A DNA stretch of 64,000 nt, taken from a phage. The position numbers and the translations under genes are program-made. Position 1 is the stretch's first letter, and every line of letters begins with the position of its first letter. The notes under the pieces are model-generated. The model saw nothing but the letters and a program-made list of their open reading frames with translations, was not told the DNA's origin and ran no database searches. The stretch lies in the sequence record PZ386973.1, one strand, 5' to 3'. Shown one piece after another: positions 1 to 28,444 of the stretch.

Positions 1-1317
1 ATGGAAGTATCAAGACCATATGTTAATACAGTAGACGTTATTGACTTCGGAATAGACAAACGTTTCTTTCGTCTACCTGTTTCAGGAATACTAGCACAAG
101 AGGGTATTACACCTAATGGTCCTCAAATAGCAATTATCAATGCGCTAGAAGATCCTAGACATCGTTTTGTAACAGCGTGTGTATCACGTCGTGTAGGCAA
201 GTCCTTTATAGCATATACACTTGGGTTCCTAAAATTACTGGAACCCAATGTGAAAGTGCTTGTTGTTGCACCGAACTACTCACTAGCTAATATTGGTTGG
301 TCACAGATTCGTGGTCTTATCAAGAAATATGGGTTACAAACAGAACGTGAGAACGCTAAGGATAAAGAGATTGAGCTAGCTAATGGTTCTCTATTTAAAC
401 TAGCTTCCGCGGCTCAGGCTGACTCCGCAGTTGGACGTTCATATGACTTTATCATCTTTGATGAGGCGGCAATTTCCGACGTGGGTGGTGATGCTTTCAG
501 GGTTCAGCTGCGTCCTACTCTAGATAAACCTAATTCTAAGGCTCTATTTATTTCCACCCCTCGTGGAGGTAACTGGTTTAAAGAATTTTATGCCTACGGA
601 TTTGATGATACATTACCTAACTGGGTATCTATTCATGGTACATATCGAGATAACCCTCGTGCTGACCTGAATGACATTGAAGAGGCACGTCGTACTGTTA
701 GTAAAAACTACTTCCGCCAAGAATATGAGGCTGACTTCTCTGTATTCGAAGGACAGATATTTGATACCTTTAATGCTATTGATCATGTTAAAGATCTCAA
801 AGGTATGCGTCATTTCTTTAAAGATGATGAGGCATTCGAAACATTACTTGGTATTGACGTTGGTTATCGTGATCCTACAGCAGTTCTTACTATTAAATAT
901 CATTACGATACGGATACCTACTATGTATTAGAAGAGTATCAGCAAGCAGAAAAAACTACAGCTCAGCATGCTGCGTATATTCAGCACTGTATAGATCGTT
1001 ATAACGTGGATCGTATCTTCGTTGACTCCGCGGCTGCCCAGTTCCGCCAGGACTTAGCTTATGAGCATGAAATTGCATCAGCTCCAGCTAAAAAGTCTGT
1101 CCTAGATGGCCTAGCGTGCTTGCAAGCGCTATTCCAGCAAGGTAAGATTATTGTAGATGCCTCATGTTCCTCCTTAATTCATGCATTGCAGAACTATAAG
1201 TGGGACTTCCAAGAAGGCGAAGAGAAATTATCACGTGAAAAACCACGTCATGATGCTAACTCTCACCTTTGTGATGCGCTCCGCTATGGAATTTACTCTA
1301 TTTCCCGTGGTAAATAA
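1..1317 (+). CDS. Terminase large subunit (ATPase plus nuclease); ORF starts with ATG at position 1
   Basis: 438-aa ORF with Walker A-like VSRRVGKSF near N-terminus and Asp-rich C-terminal nuclease region; lies just upstream of portal as in tailed-phage packaging modules. Confidence 0.88.
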   Translation: MEVSRPYVNTVDVIDFGIDKRFFRLPVSGILAQEGITPNGPQIAIINALEDPRHRFVTACVSRRVGKSFIAYTLGFLKLLEPNVKVLVVAPNYSLANIGWSQIRGLIKKYGLQTERENAKDKEIELANGSLFKLASAAQADSAVGRSYDFIIFDEAAISDVGGDAFRVQLRPTLDKPNSKALFISTPRGGNWFKEFYAYGFDDTLPNWVSIHGTYRDNPRADLNDIEEARRTVSKNYFRQEYEADFSVFEGQIFDTFNAIDHVKDLKGMRHFFKDDEAFETLLGIDVGYRDPTAVLTIKYHYDTDTYYVLEEYQQAEKTTAQHAAYIQHCIDRYNVDRIFVDSAAAQFRQDLAYEHEIASAPAKKSVLDGLACLQALFQQGKIIVDASCSSLIHALQNYKWDFQEGEEKLSREKPRHDANSHLCDALRYGIYSISRGK

Positions 1318-1330
1318 ATAATTATAGGAT

Positions 1331-1354
1331 GGGATACTACTCAGTTGGTATCCC
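1331..1354 (+). other. Stem-loop downstream of terminase gene (possible weak terminator or processing site)
   Basis: GGGATAC-loop-GTATCCC, 7-bp stem; U-tract not immediately adjacent. Confidence 0.35.
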
Positions 1355-1376
1355 GTTCCTGTATTTTAAAATCCCC

Positions 1377-1405
1377 TTTACAAATTCGATACGATTATGT
1401 ATACT
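1377..1405 (+). promoter_or_regulatory. Sigma70-like promoter upstream of HNH gene
   Basis: TTTACA - 17 bp - TATACT, about 27 nt upstream of ATG 1432. Confidence 0.45.
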
Positions 1406-1431
1406 ATATTCATACAGTTGAGGAGAACACT

Positions 1432-1869
1432 ATGGCAAGCAATGTAAAATATAAACGCGATGCTATATCCCTTATGAGAGACGGAATAAAAAGTCAATAT
1501 AAAAAAGACTCTCAATGTGCTATCTGCGGTTGTGCTGAAGAATTAGAGCTTCATCATTACCATACGGTGTCTCTACTAGTTAAAAAATTTGCTAAAGAAC
1601 TCCAATTGGATTTCACTGACGAAGAAACAGTCCTCTCAAATAGGACGGCATTCTATGATCGATATAGGCATGAGCTAGTAGAAGACACTGTTACCCTTTG
1701 TGTACACCATCACCAATTATTACATAAGGTTTACACAAAAGAACCTCCTTTATTTTCTGCTAATAAGCAAAAAGTGTGGGTTCAAAAGCAGAAAGACAAA
1801 TTACAGAATCCTCAAGAAAAGACACAAGTCAAGACTGAAACAAAATCAGGATTCGCAAGGTTCTTATAA
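1432..1869 (+). CDS. HNH endonuclease (small, Cys/His-rich)
   Basis: Motifs CAICGC...ELHHYH...CVHHHQLLH; start chosen at ATG 1432 preceded by GAGGAG; own promoter-like element and upstream hairpin. Confidence 0.72.
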   Translation: MASNVKYKRDAISLMRDGIKSQYKKDSQCAICGCAEELELHHYHTVSLLVKKFAKELQLDFTDEETVLSNRTAFYDRYRHELVEDTVTLCVHHHQLLHKVYTKEPPLFSANKQKVWVQKQKDKLQNPQEKTQVKTETKSGFARFL

Positions 1870-3086
1870 TGGGTTTTAAAAGCTGGATTACTGAAAAGCT
1901 AAATCCGGGTCAACGTATTATAAGAGACATGGAACCAGTTAGTCATCGCACTAACCGTAAGCCTTTTACCACTGGACAAGCCTACAGTAAAATTGAGATT
2001 CTCAATAGAACTGCTAATATGGTTATAGATAGTGCGGCGGAGTGTTCTTATACTGTCGGAGATAAATATAATATTGTCACGTATGCTAATGGCATCAAGA
2101 CAAAGACTCTAGACACTCTCTTAAATGTACGACCTAATCCATTCATGGATATAAGCACATTCCGTAGACTTGTAGTCACTGACCTACTTTTTGAAGGTTG
2201 TGCATACATCTATTGGGATGGCACAGCACTTTATCATGTCCCTGCTGCACTAATGCAAGTAGAGGCAGATGCTAATAAGTTTATCAAAAAATTTATATTT
2301 AATAACCAGATAGACTATCGCGTAGATGAGATTATCTTTATAAAGGATAACAGTTACGTGTGTGGCACAAATTCTCAAATTTCTGGACAATCTCGTGTTG
2401 CTACTGTTATTGATTCTCTTGAGAAGCGTTCCAAGATGCTTAACTTTAAAGAGAAATTCCTCGATAACGGAACCGTGATTGGTCTTATTCTTGAGACGGA
2501 TGAAATCCTGAACAAGAAATTGCGTGAGCGTAAACAAGAAGAATTACAACTAGATTATAATCCTAGTACAGGTCAGTCCTCTGTCCTGATTCTAGATGGT
2601 GGTATGAAAGCTAAACCGTACTCCCAAATATCCTCTTTTAAAGATCTAGACTTTAAGGAAGACATCGAAGGATTTAATAAGTCTATCTGTCTAGCCTTTG
2701 GTGTTCCGCAGGTGCTACTTGATGGTGGTAATAATGCGAACATTCGACCAAACATCGAGTTGTTCTACTATATGACTATCATACCTATGCTGAACAAGCT
2801 GACTAGTTCTCTTACTTTCTTTTTTGGTTATAAGATTACTCCTAATACTAAGGAAGTAGCTGCATTAACACCAGATAAAGAATCTGAGGCTAAACATTTA
2901 ACCTCATTGGTTAATAATGGTATTATAACTGGTAACGAAGCTCGTTTAGAGCTGAACCTTGAACCTTTAGATGATGAGCAGATGAATAAGATTCGTATTC
3001 CTGCTAACGTTGCTGGTTCTGCAACAGGTGTATCCGGTCAAGAAGGTGGTAGACCTCAAGGTTCCACCGAGGGAGATAAAGAATGA
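1869..3086 (+). CDS. Portal protein (T5 pb7-like)
   Basis: 405-aa ORF between terminase and head protease genes; start overlaps preceding stop (TAATG). Confidence 0.85.
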   Translation: MGFKSWITEKLNPGQRIIRDMEPVSHRTNRKPFTTGQAYSKIEILNRTANMVIDSAAECSYTVGDKYNIVTYANGIKTKTLDTLLNVRPNPFMDISTFRRLVVTDLLFEGCAYIYWDGTALYHVPAALMQVEADANKFIKKFIFNNQIDYRVDEIIFIKDNSYVCGTNSQISGQSRVATVIDSLEKRSKMLNFKEKFLDNGTVIGLILETDEILNKKLRERKQEELQLDYNPSTGQSSVLILDGGMKAKPYSQISSFKDLDFKEDIEGFNKSICLAFGVPQVLLDGGNNANIRPNIELFYYMTIIPMLNKLTSSLTFFFGYKITPNTKEVAALTPDKESEAKHLTSLVNNGIITGNEARLELNLEPLDDEQMNKIRIPANVAGSATGVSGQEGGRPQGSTEGDKE

Positions 3087-3574
3087 TTAATTATAGTGGT
3101 CTAAAGACCATTTTTGGTGAAAAACTGCCAGAATCTCATATCTTCTTTGCTACGGTTGCTGCGCATAAATATGTTCCTAGCTATGCTTTTCTGCGTAGAG
3201 AACTAGGACTTTCATCTGCGCATACTAATCGCAAAGTATGGAAGAAATTTGTAGAGGCTTATGGTAAAGCAGTTCCTCCTGCTCCGCCTGCTCCGCCCTT
3301 AACTCTTTCTAAGGATTTAACTTCTAGCATGTCTGTTGAAGAGGGGGCAGAATTAACACTTTCTGTTACTGCAACCGGTGGTACTGGTCCATATACTTAT
3401 GCATGGACTAAAGATGGTTCTCCTATTCCAGATGCTTCAGGAGCTACTTATACTAAGCCTGCAGCAGCTACTGAGGATTCTGGAGTCTATAAAGTAACGG
3501 TAACAGATAGCAAGAAAGTTAGTAAGGATTCTACTGCATGCACAGTAACGGTTAATCCCGGTGTTGGAGGCTAA
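3083..3574 (+). CDS. Head decoration protein with C-terminal Ig-like domain (T5 pb10-like)
   Basis: 163 aa; Pro/Ala linker PPAPPAPP followed by Ig-like segment TGGTGPYTYAWTKDGSPIPDASGATYTK. Confidence 0.7.
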   Translation: MINYSGLKTIFGEKLPESHIFFATVAAHKYVPSYAFLRRELGLSSAHTNRKVWKKFVEAYGKAVPPAPPAPPLTLSKDLTSSMSVEEGAELTLSVTATGGTGPYTYAWTKDGSPIPDASGATYTKPAAATEDSGVYKVTVTDSKKVSKDSTACTVTVNPGVGG

Positions 3575-3577
3575 TAA

Positions 3578-4210
3578 ATGACACAAGCTGCTATTGACTA
3601 TAACAAGTTAAAATCAGCACCGGTTCATTTAGATGCTTATATTAAATCTATTGATAGCGAATCCAAAGAGGGTGTTGTAAAAATCCGTGGATTCGCTAAT
3701 ACAATTAGTAAAGATCGCGCTGGTGATGTAATCCCTGCTTCCGCATGGAAAACATCTAATGCACTTGCTAACTACATGAAAAACCCGATTATTCTTTTCG
3801 GACACGACCATCGTCGTCCAATCGGCAAGTGTATTGATCTTAATCCTACTGAAATGGGTCTCGAAATCGAATGCGAGATCTATGAAAGTTCTGACCCGGC
3901 TATCTTTTCACTAATTAAAAACGGTGTACTGAAAACTTTTAGTATCGGATTCCGCTGCCTAGATGCAGAGTGGGATGAAGCTACTGATATATTTATTATT
4001 AAAGATTTAGAACTATACGAAGTCTCGGTAGTTTCTGTACCTTGTAATCAGGACTCAACATTCAATCTCGCTAAGAGCATGAATGGTCATGATTATACTG
4101 AATGGCGTAAATCTTTTACTGCAATAAGTTCTAAAGCTGTCCCAGCTCAAGAACGTAATCTTTCTGAACTAGAAAAACTTGCGATAGCTTTAGGCTACGT
4201 TAAAGAATAA
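3578..4210 (+). CDS. Prohead maturation protease (T5 pb11-like)
   Basis: 210-aa ORF immediately upstream of major capsid gene, with a His-rich FGHDHRRPIG motif consistent with a prohead protease. Confidence 0.75.
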   Translation: MTQAAIDYNKLKSAPVHLDAYIKSIDSESKEGVVKIRGFANTISKDRAGDVIPASAWKTSNALANYMKNPIILFGHDHRRPIGKCIDLNPTEMGLEIECEIYESSDPAIFSLIKNGVLKTFSIGFRCLDAEWDEATDIFIIKDLELYEVSVVSVPCNQDSTFNLAKSMNGHDYTEWRKSFTAISSKAVPAQERNLSELEKLAIALGYVKE

Positions 4211-4227
4211 CGGAGAATTATTTAAAA

Positions 4228-5604
4228 ATGACTATTGATATTAATAAGCTGAAAGAAGAACTTGGTCTGGGTGATCTGGCTAAATCTCTGGAAGGCCTGA
4301 CCGCTGCTCAGAAAGCTGCTGAAGCTGAACGTATGCGTAAAGAGCAGGAAGAAAAAGAACTGGCTCGTATGAATGACCTGGTTTCTAAAGCAGTTGGCGA
4401 AGATCGTCAGAAACTGGAACAAGCTCTGGAACTGGTTAAGTCTCTGGATGAAAAATCTAAAAAGAGTGCAGAACTGTTTGCACAGACTGTAGAAAAACAG
4501 CAGGAAACTATTGTTGGTCTTCAGGATGAAATTAAATCTCTGCTAGCAGCTCGTGAGGGTCGTTCCTTCGTCGGTGATAGCGTAGCTAAAGCACTGTATG
4601 GTACTCAAGAAAACTTTGAAGACGAAGTGGAGAAACTGGTTCTTCTGTCCTACGTGATGGAAAAAGGTGTATTTGATACTGAACATGGCCAGAGACACCT
4701 GAAAGCTGTAAACCAGTCCTCTTCAGTAGAAGTTTCTAGTGAAAGCTATGAAACTATTTTCTCTCAGCGTATTATTCGTGATCTGCAGAAAGAACTGGTA
4801 GTTGGTGCACTGTTTGAAGAATTGCCGATGTCCAGCAAAATTCTTACTATGCTGGTTGAACCAGATGCGGGTAAAGCTACTTGGGTAGATGCTGCTACTT
4901 ACGGTACTGATGCTACTACTGGTGATGAAGTTAAAGGCGCTCTTAAAGAGATCAGCTTCAAAACTTACAAACTGGCTGCTAAATCCTTTATCACTGATGA
5001 AACTGAAGAAGATGCAATCTTCTCTCTGCTGCCTCTGCTGCGTAAACGTCTGATTGAAGCACATGCTGTTTCTATTGAAGAAGCGTTTATGACTGGTGAT
5101 GGTTCCGGTAAGCCGAAAGGCCTGTTGACTCTTGCTAGCGAAGATGGTGCTAAAGTTACTACTGAAGCTAAAGCTGATGGTTCTGTTCTGGTAACTGCTA
5201 AAACCATTTCTAAACTGCGTCGTAAACTGGGCCGTCACGGTCTAAAACTGAGCAAACTGGTACTGATCGTATCTATGGATGCTTATTACGATCTGCTGGA
5301 AGATGAAGAATGGCAGGATGTTGCACAGGTTGGTAACGATGCTGTTAAACTGCAAGGTCAGGTTGGTCGTATTTATGGTCTGCCGGTTGTAGTTTCTGAG
5401 TACTTCCCAGCTAAAGCAGTAGATAAAGAGTTCGCAGTTATTGTTTATAAAGATAACTTCGTAATGCCGCGTCAGCGTGCTGTTACTGTTGAACGTGAGC
5501 GCCAAGCTGGTAAACAGCGTGATGCGTACTACGTTACTCAGCGTGTTAACCTGCAACGTTACTTTAGTAATGGCGTTGTATCTGGTGCTTACGCTGCATC
5601 TTAA
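4228..5604 (+). CDS. Major capsid protein precursor (HK97 fold, T5 pb8-like)
   Basis: 458 aa; N-terminal coiled-coil scaffold-like delta domain (EELGLGDLAKSLEGL...) then capsid core; strong host-like codon bias; followed by a strong intrinsic terminator. Confidence 0.88.
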   Translation: MTIDINKLKEELGLGDLAKSLEGLTAAQKAAEAERMRKEQEEKELARMNDLVSKAVGEDRQKLEQALELVKSLDEKSKKSAELFAQTVEKQQETIVGLQDEIKSLLAAREGRSFVGDSVAKALYGTQENFEDEVEKLVLLSYVMEKGVFDTEHGQRHLKAVNQSSSVEVSSESYETIFSQRIIRDLQKELVVGALFEELPMSSKILTMLVEPDAGKATWVDAATYGTDATTGDEVKGALKEISFKTYKLAAKSFITDETEEDAIFSLLPLLRKRLIEAHAVSIEEAFMTGDGSGKPKGLLTLASEDGAKVTTEAKADGSVLVTAKTISKLRRKLGRHGLKLSKLVLIVSMDAYYDLLEDEEWQDVAQVGNDAVKLQGQVGRIYGLPVVVSEYFPAKAVDKEFAVIVYKDNFVMPRQRAVTVERERQAGKQRDAYYVTQRVNLQRYFSNGVVSGAYAAS

Positions 5605-5624
5605 TACAGGCTTTTCAGCCGATA

Positions 5625-5652
5625 AGGAGAGCTTCGGCTCTCCTTTTTTATT
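5625..5652 (+). terminator. Intrinsic terminator after major capsid gene
   Basis: AGGAGAGC-TTCG-GCTCTCCT hairpin followed by TTTTTTATT. Confidence 0.75.
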
Positions 5653-5663
5653 GGGAAAAATAA

Positions 5664-6176
5664 ATGCAAATCATTACAGCCGAAGATTATAGGTTATATG
5701 GTAGCTTAAAACGACCTGAACTAGAATCTGGTGTAGAAATGATGATTACTGCTGCCAATGCGCTGATTACTAGCCTTCTAGGCATGGATGATGCTGATGC
5801 GGTAGACCAGCTAATCAATACAAAACCTACACGTAGAAAATATTTTCTGAGTTCGCCCTCTGCTACCTCTGTAACTAAAGTGACGATTAACGATAATGAA
5901 ATTGACCCAGAGCAGTATAGGCTATACTCTGACGGGATTATACTTCTTAAATTTAATCCTCCAGAAGGTTATATGGATGTAGCATATACACAAGGTGGAT
6001 TCAATCCAATACCTGAAGATCTCAAACTTGCAGCATGTATGCTAGTAGATCATTGGCACAAACAAGATTATCGCCAAGCTAAAACAATTGGTGGCGAAAC
6101 AGTAACCTTCAATAACACTAAATCTGGTATTCCAGAGCATATTCGTACTATTATTGAAGTATATAGGAGAGTATAA
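5664..6176 (+). CDS. Head completion / head-tail connector protein
   Basis: 170-aa ORF directly after capsid gene terminator; position in head-tail joining block. Confidence 0.5.
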   Translation: MQIITAEDYRLYGSLKRPELESGVEMMITAANALITSLLGMDDADAVDQLINTKPTRRKYFLSSPSATSVTKVTINDNEIDPEQYRLYSDGIILLKFNPPEGYMDVAYTQGGFNPIPEDLKLAACMLVDHWHKQDYRQAKTIGGETVTFNNTKSGIPEHIRTIIEVYRRV

Positions 6177-17922: not shown

Positions 17923-20025
17923 ATGATTTCAAATAATGCACCAGCTAAAATGGTTCTAAATAGCGTCTTAACTGGGTATACGTTGGCGTATATCCAGCAT
18001 TCTATTTACTCAGATTATGACGTTATAGGCAGATCTTTTTGGCTAAAAGAAGGTAGTAACATTACTCGTAGAGACTTCACGGGTGTTGATACTTTCTCTG
18101 TAACTATTAATAATCTAAAACCTACAACAACTTATGAAGTTCAGGGTGCATTTTATGATTCTATAATAGACTCTGAACTACTTAATGCTCAGATAGGAAT
18201 TAACCTATCTGATAAGCAAACTTTTAAAATGAAATCAGCACCTAGAATCACAGGTGCTAGATGTGAATCAGAACCAGTAGATGTTGGTGTTGGAGCACCT
18301 ATAGTTTTTATCGATACTACTGGAGAAGCTGATTATTGTACTATAGAATTAAAAAACAATTCTAATGCTAATAATCCGTGGGTTAAATATTACGTTGGTG
18401 CACTAATGCCAACTATTATGTTTGGTGGTGTGCCAATCGGGTTCTATAAAGTAAGAATTTCTGGTCAAATAAGCCTACCAGACGGTGTTACTATTGATTC
18501 GTCTGGATACTATGAGTATCCTACCGTCTTTGAAGTTAATTATAATTTTGTTCCTCCTACAGCACCCACTAATATTGAGTTTAAAGCAGCGCGCATTGCA
18601 GACGGTAAAGAACGCTATGATTTGCGTGTGCAATGGGATTGGAATAGAGGCGCAGGTGCCAACGTTCGTGAATTCGTTCTATCTTATATAGATTCAACAG
18701 AATTTGCTAGAACTGGATGGACTAAGGCACAAAAAATCAACGTGGGGGCTGCTCAGTCGGCAACAATTATATCATTCCCGTGGAAAGTAGAGCATAAATT
18801 TAAAGTATCATCTATTGCCTGGGGACCGGATACTCAAGATGTTGCCGATTCCGCAATACAAACATTTATATTAAATGAGAGTACTCCATTAGATAATAGT
18901 TTTGTTAATGAAACTGGTATCGAAGTAAATTACGCGTACATTAAGGGTAAGATCAAAGATGGATCTACCTGGAAACAAACCTTCCTAATAGATGCTGCTA
19001 CAGGTGCTATTAATATAGGTCTTCTAGATGCAGAAGGAAAAGCACCAATATCTTTTGACCCTATTAAAAAGATAATTAACGTTGATGGAAGTGTAATAAC
19101 TAAAACTATTAATGCTGCGAACTTTGTCATGACTAACTTAACTGGTCAAGATAACCCAGCAATCTATACTCAAGGTAAAACTTGGGGAGATACAAAATCA
19201 GGTATTTGGATGGGCATGGATAATGCTACTGCTAAGCCAAAACTGGACATTGGTAATGCTACACAGTATATTCGTTATGATGGGGATACATTAAGAATCT
19301 CTAGTGGGGTTGTAATTGGTACACCTAATGGCGATATTGATATAGAAACAGGTATACAAGGTAAGCAAACAGTATTTATATATATTCTAGGTACTTCATT
19401 ACCCGCTAAACCAACAAGCCCTACATATCCACCTTCTGGTTGGTCTAAAACCCCACCAAATAGAACATCTAATACTCAGAATATTTACTGCTCTACTGGT
19501 ACTCTAGACCCTGTTACTAATCAATTAGTATCCGGAACCAGTTGGTCAGATGTAGTTCAATGGAGTGGTACTGAAGGTGTTGATGGTAGACCCGGGGCAG
19601 ATGGTAAGCCAGGTGCTGATGGTAGACCAGGAGATACAGGACAACGTGGTCCTGGAATGTATTCTCTTGCTATTGCGAATTTAACAGCATGGAATGATTC
19701 TCAGGCTAATTCGTTTTTTACATCTAATTTTGGTACTGGTCCTGTTAAATATGATGTATTAACCGAGTATAAAAGTGGGGCACCAGGAACAGCATTTACT
19801 AGGCAGTGGAATGGTTCAGCATGGGCTAGCCCTGCAATGGTTTTACATGGTGATATGATAGTTAATGGTACGGTAACTGCTAGTAAAATTGTTGCTAATA
19901 ACGCTTTCTTATCACAAATTGGTGTAAATATTATATATGATCGTGCAGCCGCACTATCCTCTAATCCAGAGGGATCTTACAAAATGAAGATAGACCTGCA
20001 AAACGGGTATATCCATATAAGGTAA
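17923..20025 (+). CDS. Tail tip / central fibre protein with collagen-like triplets (T5 pb4-like)
   Basis: 700 aa; Gly-X-Y run [27 protein letters not shown]. Confidence 0.72.
19576..19656 (+). repeat. Collagen-like Gly-X-Y triplet run (27 codons) inside pb4-like gene
   Basis: [27 protein letters not shown]. Confidence 0.8.
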
Positions 20026-26605: not shown

Positions 26606-28444
26606 TTATTCTAGGTAGGAAAATCCTTCTGCATCTTTTTTAACAGTAATCTTATGAGCTAATGGATGCGTATGCCCATGAGAAACAATGATAGAATTTA
26701 GACTTTCTTCCTCATTTAATAGTTCAACAAGAGTGTCAAGTCCTTTAGTATCAATAAAGCTAATTACTTCATCAAGGAATAGAAGATTAATATTAACTTT
26801 ACTAATAGATGTTAGTAGCATTCGAATAGCTAACAGAGTTGCTAGGTTGATTCGACTTTGCTGACCAGTAGAGCAATTCTCCATACTAGTACGATTTCCA
26901 TCATTGAAGATTACTACTTGTAATTTTGTTTCATCAAGTTCAAATCCAAGTGCGAACTTACCGCCAGTCATAATGGAAAGGTATTTATTGATAAGCTCTT
27001 CAAATACTTTCACACTATGCTCTAGTTTATATCCTACTAGATTCTTTAATGCAGCGATCAGAATATCGAGATCAGCAACAGCCTCTGATACCTCATCCAG
27101 TTTGGAAGTAATCTCAGACATTTCTGCCTCAGCTTTCTCAATCTGTTCTAGTTTCGCTTTATATTTTGCATTGGCTAATTCGACATTTGCATTATGCTCT
27201 TTGGCAATTGCAACCTTAGAACGGCCATCAGCGATTTCCTGTTCTAATTGTCGGATTTGCACCTGTAGGTTTTGCACATTGAGTTCTTCAAAAGAAGCAT
27301 CACTCATTGAACTTTTGAACTCGTCTCTAGCTGCTACTGCTTTATCCAAAGCATCCTTTGCTCTAGTATACGCAACGTACTCAAGTTGTTCTTTCTTCAA
27401 CTGTTCTAACTTAGCTTCAAGAGATTGCTTCTCTTTGAACAGAGGGTCATATTCTATTCTAGCCATATCCATTGCTTTTTGAGCAGCAGTTGTATCCAGA
27501 TGAGTACCGCAAGTAGGACATTCAGTATTTGAAGCCTCTTGCTTGAACTTCTGATAACGTTTCTTAACTTCTCCCGCACGTGAGGTCACAATCGTTAGGT
27601 CACGCGTAACACTTGAGATCTCTTCGTTTTGGTCAGTGGGCGCAGGTAAATTTTTGAAAGGCTCGAAAGATTGTTCGGCAACTTGTACAGCTTTGTCCAA
27701 ATTACGCAATTTAGTAATATTAGCCTCTTGAGACTTGGCTAATGCCGCCTTAATTTTCGATTCAGTAAGTTCTTGTGCTAATGGCTCTTCATCAAACTCC
27801 GGCACTTCGACTGGTTCTTGTAAGGTTCCCAAGTTATTCTTTCCATTAAGGATTTTCGTAATTACAGCCATTTGGCCCTGCAAATTATTTAAGGTATTTG
27901 CTATTTCTTTACGATCAGCCTTAATAGTTTCAGACATTTCTTTATACTGCTCTTGATTAAACAAGTTAACAAGAAACGCTTTACGTGTTGCATCGGTAGC
28001 TTTGAGGAAGTCTAGATTTGAACCAACAGATTGATAGATTAGTTTGGTGAAAGTTTGGAAGTCACCACCCATGATCTCTTCAATCATCTTGTATGTTTGG
28101 GTTGCCGTGTGTCCACTAATATCTTCTCCATTCTTAATAAGAGTTACTTTAGCGGTTGACTTGACAACTTTATGCAGCTCATATTCATCATCATCCTTTG
28201 AAAAGTAAGCGTGCATATCATACTCTTTTTTCGGAGAAGACCAAGAGAACAGAGCATCTTTCTTAATACCGCGTGAGTTCTTATTATAGAATAGTTCTTC
28301 AATAACAGTAGCAATTGTAGATTTCCCTAGCCCATTGCCACCAATTAGTTGAGTAACGGGATTCTTATCGAAATGAATTACGATGTCCTTACCGTAAGAC
28401 ATAACGTTACTAAATTTTAGTGTCTTAATTATAATCTTTGACAT
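26606..28444 (-). CDS. SbcC/Rad50-like recombination ATPase
   Basis: N-terminal Walker A (GGNGLGKST), long central coiled coil with CPTCG zinc hook, C-terminal LLFLDEVISFID Walker B/D-loop; start set at ATG 28444. Confidence 0.85.
   Translation of the reverse strand: MSKIIIKTLKFSNVMSYGKDIVIHFDKNPVTQLIGGNGLGKSTIATVIEELFYNKNSRGIKKDALFSWSSPKKEYDMHAYFSKDDDEYELHKVVKSTAKVTLIKNGEDISGHTATQTYKMIEEIMGGDFQTFTKLIYQSVGSNLDFLKATDATRKAFLVNLFNQEQYKEMSETIKADRKEIANTLNNLQGQMAVITKILNGKNNLGTLQEPVEVPEFDEEPLAQELTESKIKAALAKSQEANITKLRNLDKAVQVAEQSFEPFKNLPAPTDQNEEISSVTRDLTIVTSRAGEVKKRYQKFKQEASNTECPTCGTHLDTTAAQKAMDMARIEYDPLFKEKQSLEAKLEQLKKEQLEYVAYTRAKDALDKAVAARDEFKSSMSDASFEELNVQNLQVQIRQLEQEIADGRSKVAIAKEHNANVELANAKYKAKLEQIEKAEAEMSEITSKLDEVSEAVADLDILIAALKNLVGYKLEHSVKVFEELINKYLSIMTGGKFALGFELDETKLQVVIFNDGNRTSMENCSTGQQSRINLATLLAIRMLLTSISKVNINLLFLDEVISFIDTKGLDTLVELLNEEESLNSIIVSHGHTHPLAHKITVKKDAEGFSYLE

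Follow-up and report, generated by a model that had tools for sequence, protein, structure and literature searches.

A predicted T5-type SciA nicking endonuclease gene between the terminase and portal genes of a T5-like phage

In the virion DNA of bacteriophage T5, one strand carries all the nicks, five of them major and many minor, and the major nick sites fit the consensus 5′-R/GCGCRGG-3′ (PMC3517423). The same article maps sciA and sciB to the late region of T5 and, citing Rogers et al. 1979, mentions viable T5 mutants that lack the nicks. For T5 itself, both SciA and its structure have been established, as has the sequence that it recognises; the gene already has a name, a Pfam family, a Swiss-Prot-style entry and two crystal structures in complex with target DNA. 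The subject of the present analysis is a small gene at positions 1432..1869 of a 64,000-nucleotide stretch of phage DNA (PZ386973.1; this whole stretch is referred to as the window), situated between the genes for the terminase large subunit (TerL) and the portal protein. The initial annotation had described it as a self-contained HNH endonuclease cassette inserted between two packaging genes, acting either as a homing element or as a required packaging cofactor. The best fit is neither of the two. The gene is read here, with a probability of roughly 0.92, as the ortholog of T5 sciA (T5.153), coding for an HNH nickase that cuts one strand 5′ of GCGC, and as a vertically inherited core gene of the Demerecviridae. 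The outcome is mainly a corrected annotation, in which a false lead to a mobile HNH cassette is removed, a T5-like SciA nickase is named, and a promoter for sciA and one predicted target site are added.

Identity and fold of the protein

The open reading frame (ORF) of sciA runs on the plus strand from the ATG at 1432 to the TAA at 1867-1869 and encodes 145 amino acids. A longer mechanical ORF from a TTG at 1345 was rejected, as all homologs begin at the MA(x)N of the 1432 start. A phmmer search aligned residues 1-145 of the protein with residues 4-148 of PDB entry 9QGV over the full length (E = 4e-80), and entry 9QGX was likewise matched. Both entries were released on 2026-03-25, and their titles name the SciA(H42Q) and SciA(H42A) endonuclease of Escherichia phage T5 with 10 bp DNA (GCGC sequence 2 and 1, respectively). 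The crystallized protein is the T5.153 translation (AAS77192.1, also T5p149; UniProt identifier ENDON_BPT5) apart from residue 42. The window protein and T5.153, both of 145 amino acids, are 83% identical and differ at 24 positions. A sequence identical to that of the window protein has been deposited before, for example in Salmonella phage SPC35 (ADW80120.1), under the name “Nicking site-specific endonuclease”.

Scans of the protein against Pfam-A and NCBIfam returned no matches; the PF26848 family model postdates the Pfam version that was used. The PHROG scan assigned it to PHROG 3497 (“unknown function”), with HNH PHROGs reaching only 6e-6. A large protein database yielded 114 homologs, all assigned to PF26848, and their UniRef names include “Nicking endonuclease”. 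Identical or near-identical sequences have also been deposited under Shigella sonnei, Salmonella enterica, Brucella melitensis and Enterococcus faecalis, and some T5-like records carry Listeria or Campylobacter phage labels. These names most likely reflect contaminating T5-like phage reads in assemblies, or mislabelled hosts.

The HNH-type motifs quoted in the initial annotation are all present and conserved in the homologs, as C29-A-I-C32, H41-H42-Y43-H44 and C90-V-H-H-H94-Q-L-L-H98. Residues C29, C32, H41, H42, Y43, R71, C90, H94 and H98 are invariant in an alignment of 40 diverse homologs, and the three motif blocks were found in 111-113 of the 114 database sequences. Alignment and AlphaFold prediction together place an HNH (beta-beta-alpha-metal) motif of the form CxxC...HH...CxxH/H...H on a beta-hairpin and helix, the predicted strands spanning residues 38-42 and 86-90 and the helix residues 91-101. 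There is a helical insertion within this beta-beta-alpha fold. The predicted structure has the same fold as the solved SciA-DNA complex, with a root-mean-square deviation of 0.7-1.1 Å.

The roles of individual residues can be predicted. H42, which the solved DNA complexes carry mutated to Q or A, would for that reason be the general base in strand cutting. C29, C32 and C90, together with H93 or H94, are expected to form a structural zinc site, while H41 and H98 are predicted to contribute to the catalytic metal site. The window protein should recognise GCGC-containing sites and cut one strand just 5′ of GCGC (R^GCGC; in the major form R^GCGCRGG), leaving the strand-specific single-chain interruptions that are typical of T5-like virion DNA.

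The end of the protein has a feature of its own. Residues 136-145 (window 1837..1866, KSGFARFL) form a conserved C-terminal peptide of the pattern G-F/L-x-K/R-F-L/I/K, present in one copy in Tequintavirus-type proteins and in two copies in many others. The strict pattern occurs in 82 of 112 homologs, with most of the remainder fitting looser variants. It is preceded by a variable linker that is of low AlphaFold confidence and is unmodelled in the crystal chains, in which 119-121 of 148 residues are seen. The peptide may serve in docking to another protein.

Distribution of sciA and the mobile gene beside it

tblastn detected sciA in 900 phage records, at 903 places and as one copy each. The TerL family of the window was found in 908 records (E ≤ 1e-60), and the excess of 8 records possibly reflects partial records or divergence beyond the reach of tblastn. 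By host, the records with sciA and with TerL number 356/356 for Vibrio, 130/130 for Escherichia, 81/81 for Klebsiella, 267/271 for Salmonella, 10/10 for Proteus and 7/7 for Aeromonas. Synteny was sampled in 10 annotated loci and in 80 viral contigs from IMG/VR that had been retrieved with conserved peptides. In every sampled locus with enough flanking sequence, sciA follows TerL and directly precedes portal, all three being on one strand. The sciA-portal junction is uninterrupted in all sampled loci, and no empty sciA site was found among the 90. This gene order spans the Markadamsvirinae, the Ermolyevavirinae (Vibrio phage Ceto), Novosibvirus (Proteus PM135), Sugarlandvirus and Serratia phage Kamaji. 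A “nicking endonuclease” has also been reported between TerL and the head genes of Erwinia phage Key (PMC10194208).

The protein identity of SciA declines in step with that of TerL and portal, from the E. coli phages out to the Vibrio phages. For SciA, TerL and portal, the respective values are 70/77/70% in Serratia and 48-55/57-60/48-52% in Vibrio. As sciA is a near-universal single-copy gene at a fixed position, with an identity that tracks TerL and portal, comparison of the sequences identifies it as a vertically inherited core gene of the Demerecviridae and not as a mobile element. The synteny comparison that the initial annotation had proposed thus found universal presence at this position, the first half of what it had named as evidence against mobility, and an inserted, mobile sciA is refuted. 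The choice had been considered undecidable from sequence; comparative sequence and structural data decide it.

In one record, PV804859.1 (Salmonella phage MET_P1-197_46, 46 kb; locus L009), sciA, portal and major capsid are all in fragments. A real loss of sciA was rejected in this case, as the portal and capsid genes are split as well, which points to a poor assembly rich in frameshifts, and the locus was discarded.

The view of sciA as a free-standing HNH homing endonuclease, a selfish cassette spreading by the cutting of relatives that lack it, draws on its HNH-type motif, its small size, its own promoter and ribosome-binding site, and a TerL-sciA spacer that demonstrably accepts mobile genes. 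The first 300 nucleotides (nt) of sciA are also more divergent than the flanks, and its GC content of 36.1% is slightly below that of its neighbours (38.9% for the window). The GC value is uninformative, since many T5 genes have the same GC content and the neighbours one only slightly higher; a foreign origin on this ground was rejected. Against homing stand the occurrence of sciA in about 900 records versus 908 for TerL, always as a single copy, the 0 empty sites in 90 loci with constant position and orientation, a divergence across subfamilies that parallels TerL and portal, and a stop codon that overlaps the portal start. Moreover, it is a neighbouring gene of the T5orf172 type which, unlike sciA, shows the sporadic, multi-paralog and decaying pattern of a mobile element. 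A homing role for sciA is scarcely credible.

This neighbouring gene occupies the gap between TerL and sciA, which measures approximately 820-840 nt in T5, IrisVonRoten, AKFV33, H8, SP01, EC100 and some Klebsiella phages, and otherwise approximately 118 nt. The extra gene is T5.154 in T5. Its product combines a T5orf172/MUG113 (GIY-YIG-like) domain with a CapR domain and a treble-clef zinc finger. Full-length copies are limited to about 110 records, while T5orf172 genes, counted with paralogs elsewhere in the same genomes, were found at 873 places in 672 records; in YJin-2024a the gene has decayed to a 146-nt remnant. In the numbered sample loci, the gene or its remnant lies at 2512..3345 of L001 (T5.154), 1971..2645 of L002, 1813..2511 of L006 and 1620..1760 of L005. 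The insertion point is directly after TATACTATATTCAT, between the −10 box of the promoter and the ribosome-binding site of sciA (window 1405..1431). The window carries the empty T5orf172 site, from which the gene is absent. In Proteus phages the same gap holds a receptor-binding protein gene, and in environmental contigs it holds 519-amino acid zinc-finger/nuclease-like ORFs. Because other lineages have different genes in the same gap, it is read as a recurrent landing pad, and T5.154 (T5orf172/GIY-YIG-type), not sciA, as the true mobile-type element of the locus. The suggestion of mobility was therefore sound for the spacer, which holds T5.154 in T5 and its counterparts in about 110 other records, and wrong for sciA.

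The divergence of sciA from its T5 counterpart is confined within the gene. Relative to T5, TerL of the window is 99.8% identical (one non-synonymous codon difference) and portal 98.3%, while SciA is only 83% identical. At the DNA level the difference is limited to the 5′ part of sciA, approximately 300 nt (window 1432..1730 versus L001 3335..3630), where identity falls to 63-82%; the last 140 nt show 90-98% identity. The amino acid differences cluster in the N-terminal two thirds of the protein. Genomes with the divergent sciA allele also have the T5orf172 insert or, in the case of YJin-2024a, what remains of it. On this pattern of identity, the divergent 5′ part may be a co-conversion tract, or a target (or target-immunity) tract, of the adjacent T5orf172 homing endonuclease.

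Expression, nick sites and a possible link to packaging

The hairpin, promoter and ribosome-binding site that had been noted upstream of the gene are all present. The hairpin is real but larger than the 1331..1354 first given: it extends over 1327..1358 on the plus strand, after TerL, with a 13-pair stem, a 6-nt loop and a stability of approximately −21 kcal/mol, followed by CTGTATTTTA, a weak T-rich tail, and is terminator-like. T5, IrisVonRoten, atrejo and YJin-2024a have nearly the same hairpin and promoter. Serratia phage Kamaji and loci L030, L033 and L039 have terminator-like hairpins of other sequences at the equivalent position, and in many marine relatives the post-TerL hairpin is weak or absent.

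The sigma-70-type promoter TTTACA-17-TATACT (1377..1405, plus strand) serves the sciA-portal unit. It matches the consensus at 10 of 12 positions and is joint-best within the first 6 kb of the window, the only other 10/12 site being on the minus strand inside portal. Promoter-like sites in 1..6000 number 15 versus 14.4 expected, with no excess over chance. A single match is consequently no evidence alone, and conservation was used instead. All 22 of the diverse relatives compared have a match of 10-12 of 12 positions between TerL and sciA, even marine ones at ≤50% protein identity, in which the rest of the spacer cannot be aligned. A “putative promoter” is also annotated at the equivalent position in the T5 record AY692264. 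The strong ribosome-binding site could likewise be read from the sequence as a Shine–Dalgarno GAGGAG at 1420..1425 (plus strand), 6 nt 5′ of the sciA ATG, and most homolog starts are preceded by similar purine-rich sequences.

At its 3′ end the gene runs directly into portal. The TAA of sciA overlaps the portal ATG at 1869 (TAATG) and the sciA unit has no terminator of its own, so that the “self-contained” character attributed to it does not hold. From the overlap, sciA and portal are taken to be co-transcribed and are probably translationally coupled. Transcripts of TerL would be partly halted at the hairpin (1327..1358), and the promoter at 1377..1405 would start a new unit with sciA first and portal second, coupled through the overlap. 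SciA would then be made late in infection, at the same time as the proteins for the head and for packaging.

One candidate target site could be placed in the window. The sequence GGCGCAGG at 27639..27646 (plus strand) matches the T5 consensus, and a nick would be expected between G27639 and G27640. A “major DNA single-chain interruption” annotated at 78573/78574 in AY543070 aligns to this site, which by alignment is the predicted positional ortholog of the 64.8% major single-chain interruption of T5. The site lies on the antisense strand of the D13 (SbcC-like) gene. Its core, TGGGCGC, is invariant in seven of seven phages, among them Klebsiella Sugarlandviruses with differing flanks; coding constraint could also contribute to this conservation. 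Counts of sites lend no support: RGCGCRGG occurs twice in the window, as chance predicts, GCGC is slightly under-represented (observed/expected 0.8), and R-GCGC in the window has no clear strand bias (23 versus 30). Support thus comes only from the positional orthology of 27639. A second exact match to GGCGCAGG was observed at 18649..18656, on the same (plus) strand as 27639, with none on the other strand.

The keeping of this orthologous site also speaks against a proposal that sciA is a nuclease directed against host or competitor DNA, for takeover or inter-phage conflict, and not against the phage's own genome. T5 has many nucleases, including about nine HNH proteins with unclear roles (bioRxiv 10.64898/2026.04.02.716235), and GCGC is common in enterobacterial DNA. 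The position and promoter of sciA, however, are those of a late head and packaging operon and not of the pre-early or early takeover genes, and both its named function and the DNA complexes concern nick sites of the phage itself. Such a role is highly improbable.

A packaging function was the other possibility raised at the outset. In that case sciA would primarily be a cofactor of the HK97 gp74 type, a terminase-binding HNH protein that is essential and needed for the cutting of concatemer ends. The gene adjoins TerS, TerL and portal, a linkage that is kept family-wide, and gp74 likewise has a helical insertion in its beta-beta-alpha fold (review PMC13595911). The conserved C-terminal peptide after its disordered linker is a possible docking motif, and the annotation of sciB in AY692264 as the gene now called TerS hints at a connection between nicking and terminase. 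SciA is nevertheless without homology to the classical HNH families that include gp74-type proteins, its solved complexes hold nick-site DNA, and T5-like phages have long terminal repeats, not cos ends. The viable nick-less mutants reported in PMC3517423 (citing Rogers et al. 1979) argue against sciA being essential for packaging. As a description of the gene's primary role, the gp74 model is very unlikely.

The sciB label deserves mention in its own right. In AY692264, the T5 st0 record, the present TerS gene (T5p152; L010 1..473, also L005 1..184) is labelled [quoted passage not shown], and some newer records likewise give the TerS gene the “probable sciB” label. This is either an old misassignment based on mapping or a hint that terminase modulates nicking.

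A SciA nickase could also be physically coupled to the packaging motor, docking on terminase or portal and nicking the DNA during its passage into the head. This idea is drawn from the C-terminal peptide, the unbroken TerL-sciA-portal linkage, the stop/start overlap and the sciB label of TerS; it is possible, though doubtful. If true, a motor-docked nickase would explain why the nicks are in one strand only and why the position of sciA never changes. For the purpose of the T5 nicks, the family-wide linkage and the C-terminal tail are in any case usable clues.

Neighbouring genes and comparison with known systems

The TerL gene occupies 1..1317 on the plus strand (Pfam Terminase_6N/6C, PHROG 2), with 99.8% amino acid identity to T5 TerL, and the sequence between 1317 and 1432 forms a spacer of 114 nt. 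It is followed on the same strand by the sciA ortholog at 1432..1869, encoding a divergent HNH site-specific nicking endonuclease of the PF26848, ENDON_BPT5 family, and by the portal gene at 1869..3086 (Pfam Phage_portal, 9e-50). Downstream of portal are genes for an Ig-like-domain decoration protein, a prohead protease, the major capsid protein (4228..5604) and a 464-amino acid tail tube protein. Directly 3′ of the major capsid gene, at 5624..5645 (plus strand), there is a canonical strong intrinsic terminator, AAGGAGAGC-TTCG-GCTCTCCTT followed by TTTTATT, which is probably the end of the sciA-portal-protease-capsid transcription unit. From TerL on, the gene order is that of the T5 late genes. 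With window 1..3600 as query, megablast matched 452 T5-like phages at 80-96% identity, their hosts being Salmonella, Escherichia and related bacteria. From the late-gene order and these matches, the phage is therefore assigned to the Demerecviridae (Markadamsvirinae).

Among the systems with which the locus can be compared, the homing endonucleases of T5-like phages (T5.154 and the HNH genes of the tRNA region) are likewise small intergenic nuclease genes, and T5.154 resides in the very spacer 5′ of sciA. They are sporadic and multi-copy, polymorphic for presence and absence and subject to decay, whereas sciA is universal, single-copy and fixed. HK97 gp74 and related terminase-associated HNH proteins share with SciA a small HNH gene beside the terminase and portal genes and a helical insertion in the fold. 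The group was reportedly described by Kala et al. in 2014 and includes the GVE2 HNH protein (PDB 5H0O).

Pseudomonas phage tf and the phiKMV-like phages also have virion DNA with strand-specific nicks at short consensus sites, but the consensus sites are others, for example TACTGTGAC in tf (PMC3517423). The closest counterpart is T5 SciA, a full-length ortholog of equal length (145 amino acids, 83% identity) with the same fold and invariant Cys/His residues. T5 and the window also share the TerL-sciA-portal position with its stop/start overlap, the upstream hairpin and promoter, and an ortholog of the major nick site. They differ by 24 amino acids in SciA and by T5.154, which in T5 separates the promoter from sciA and which the window lacks.
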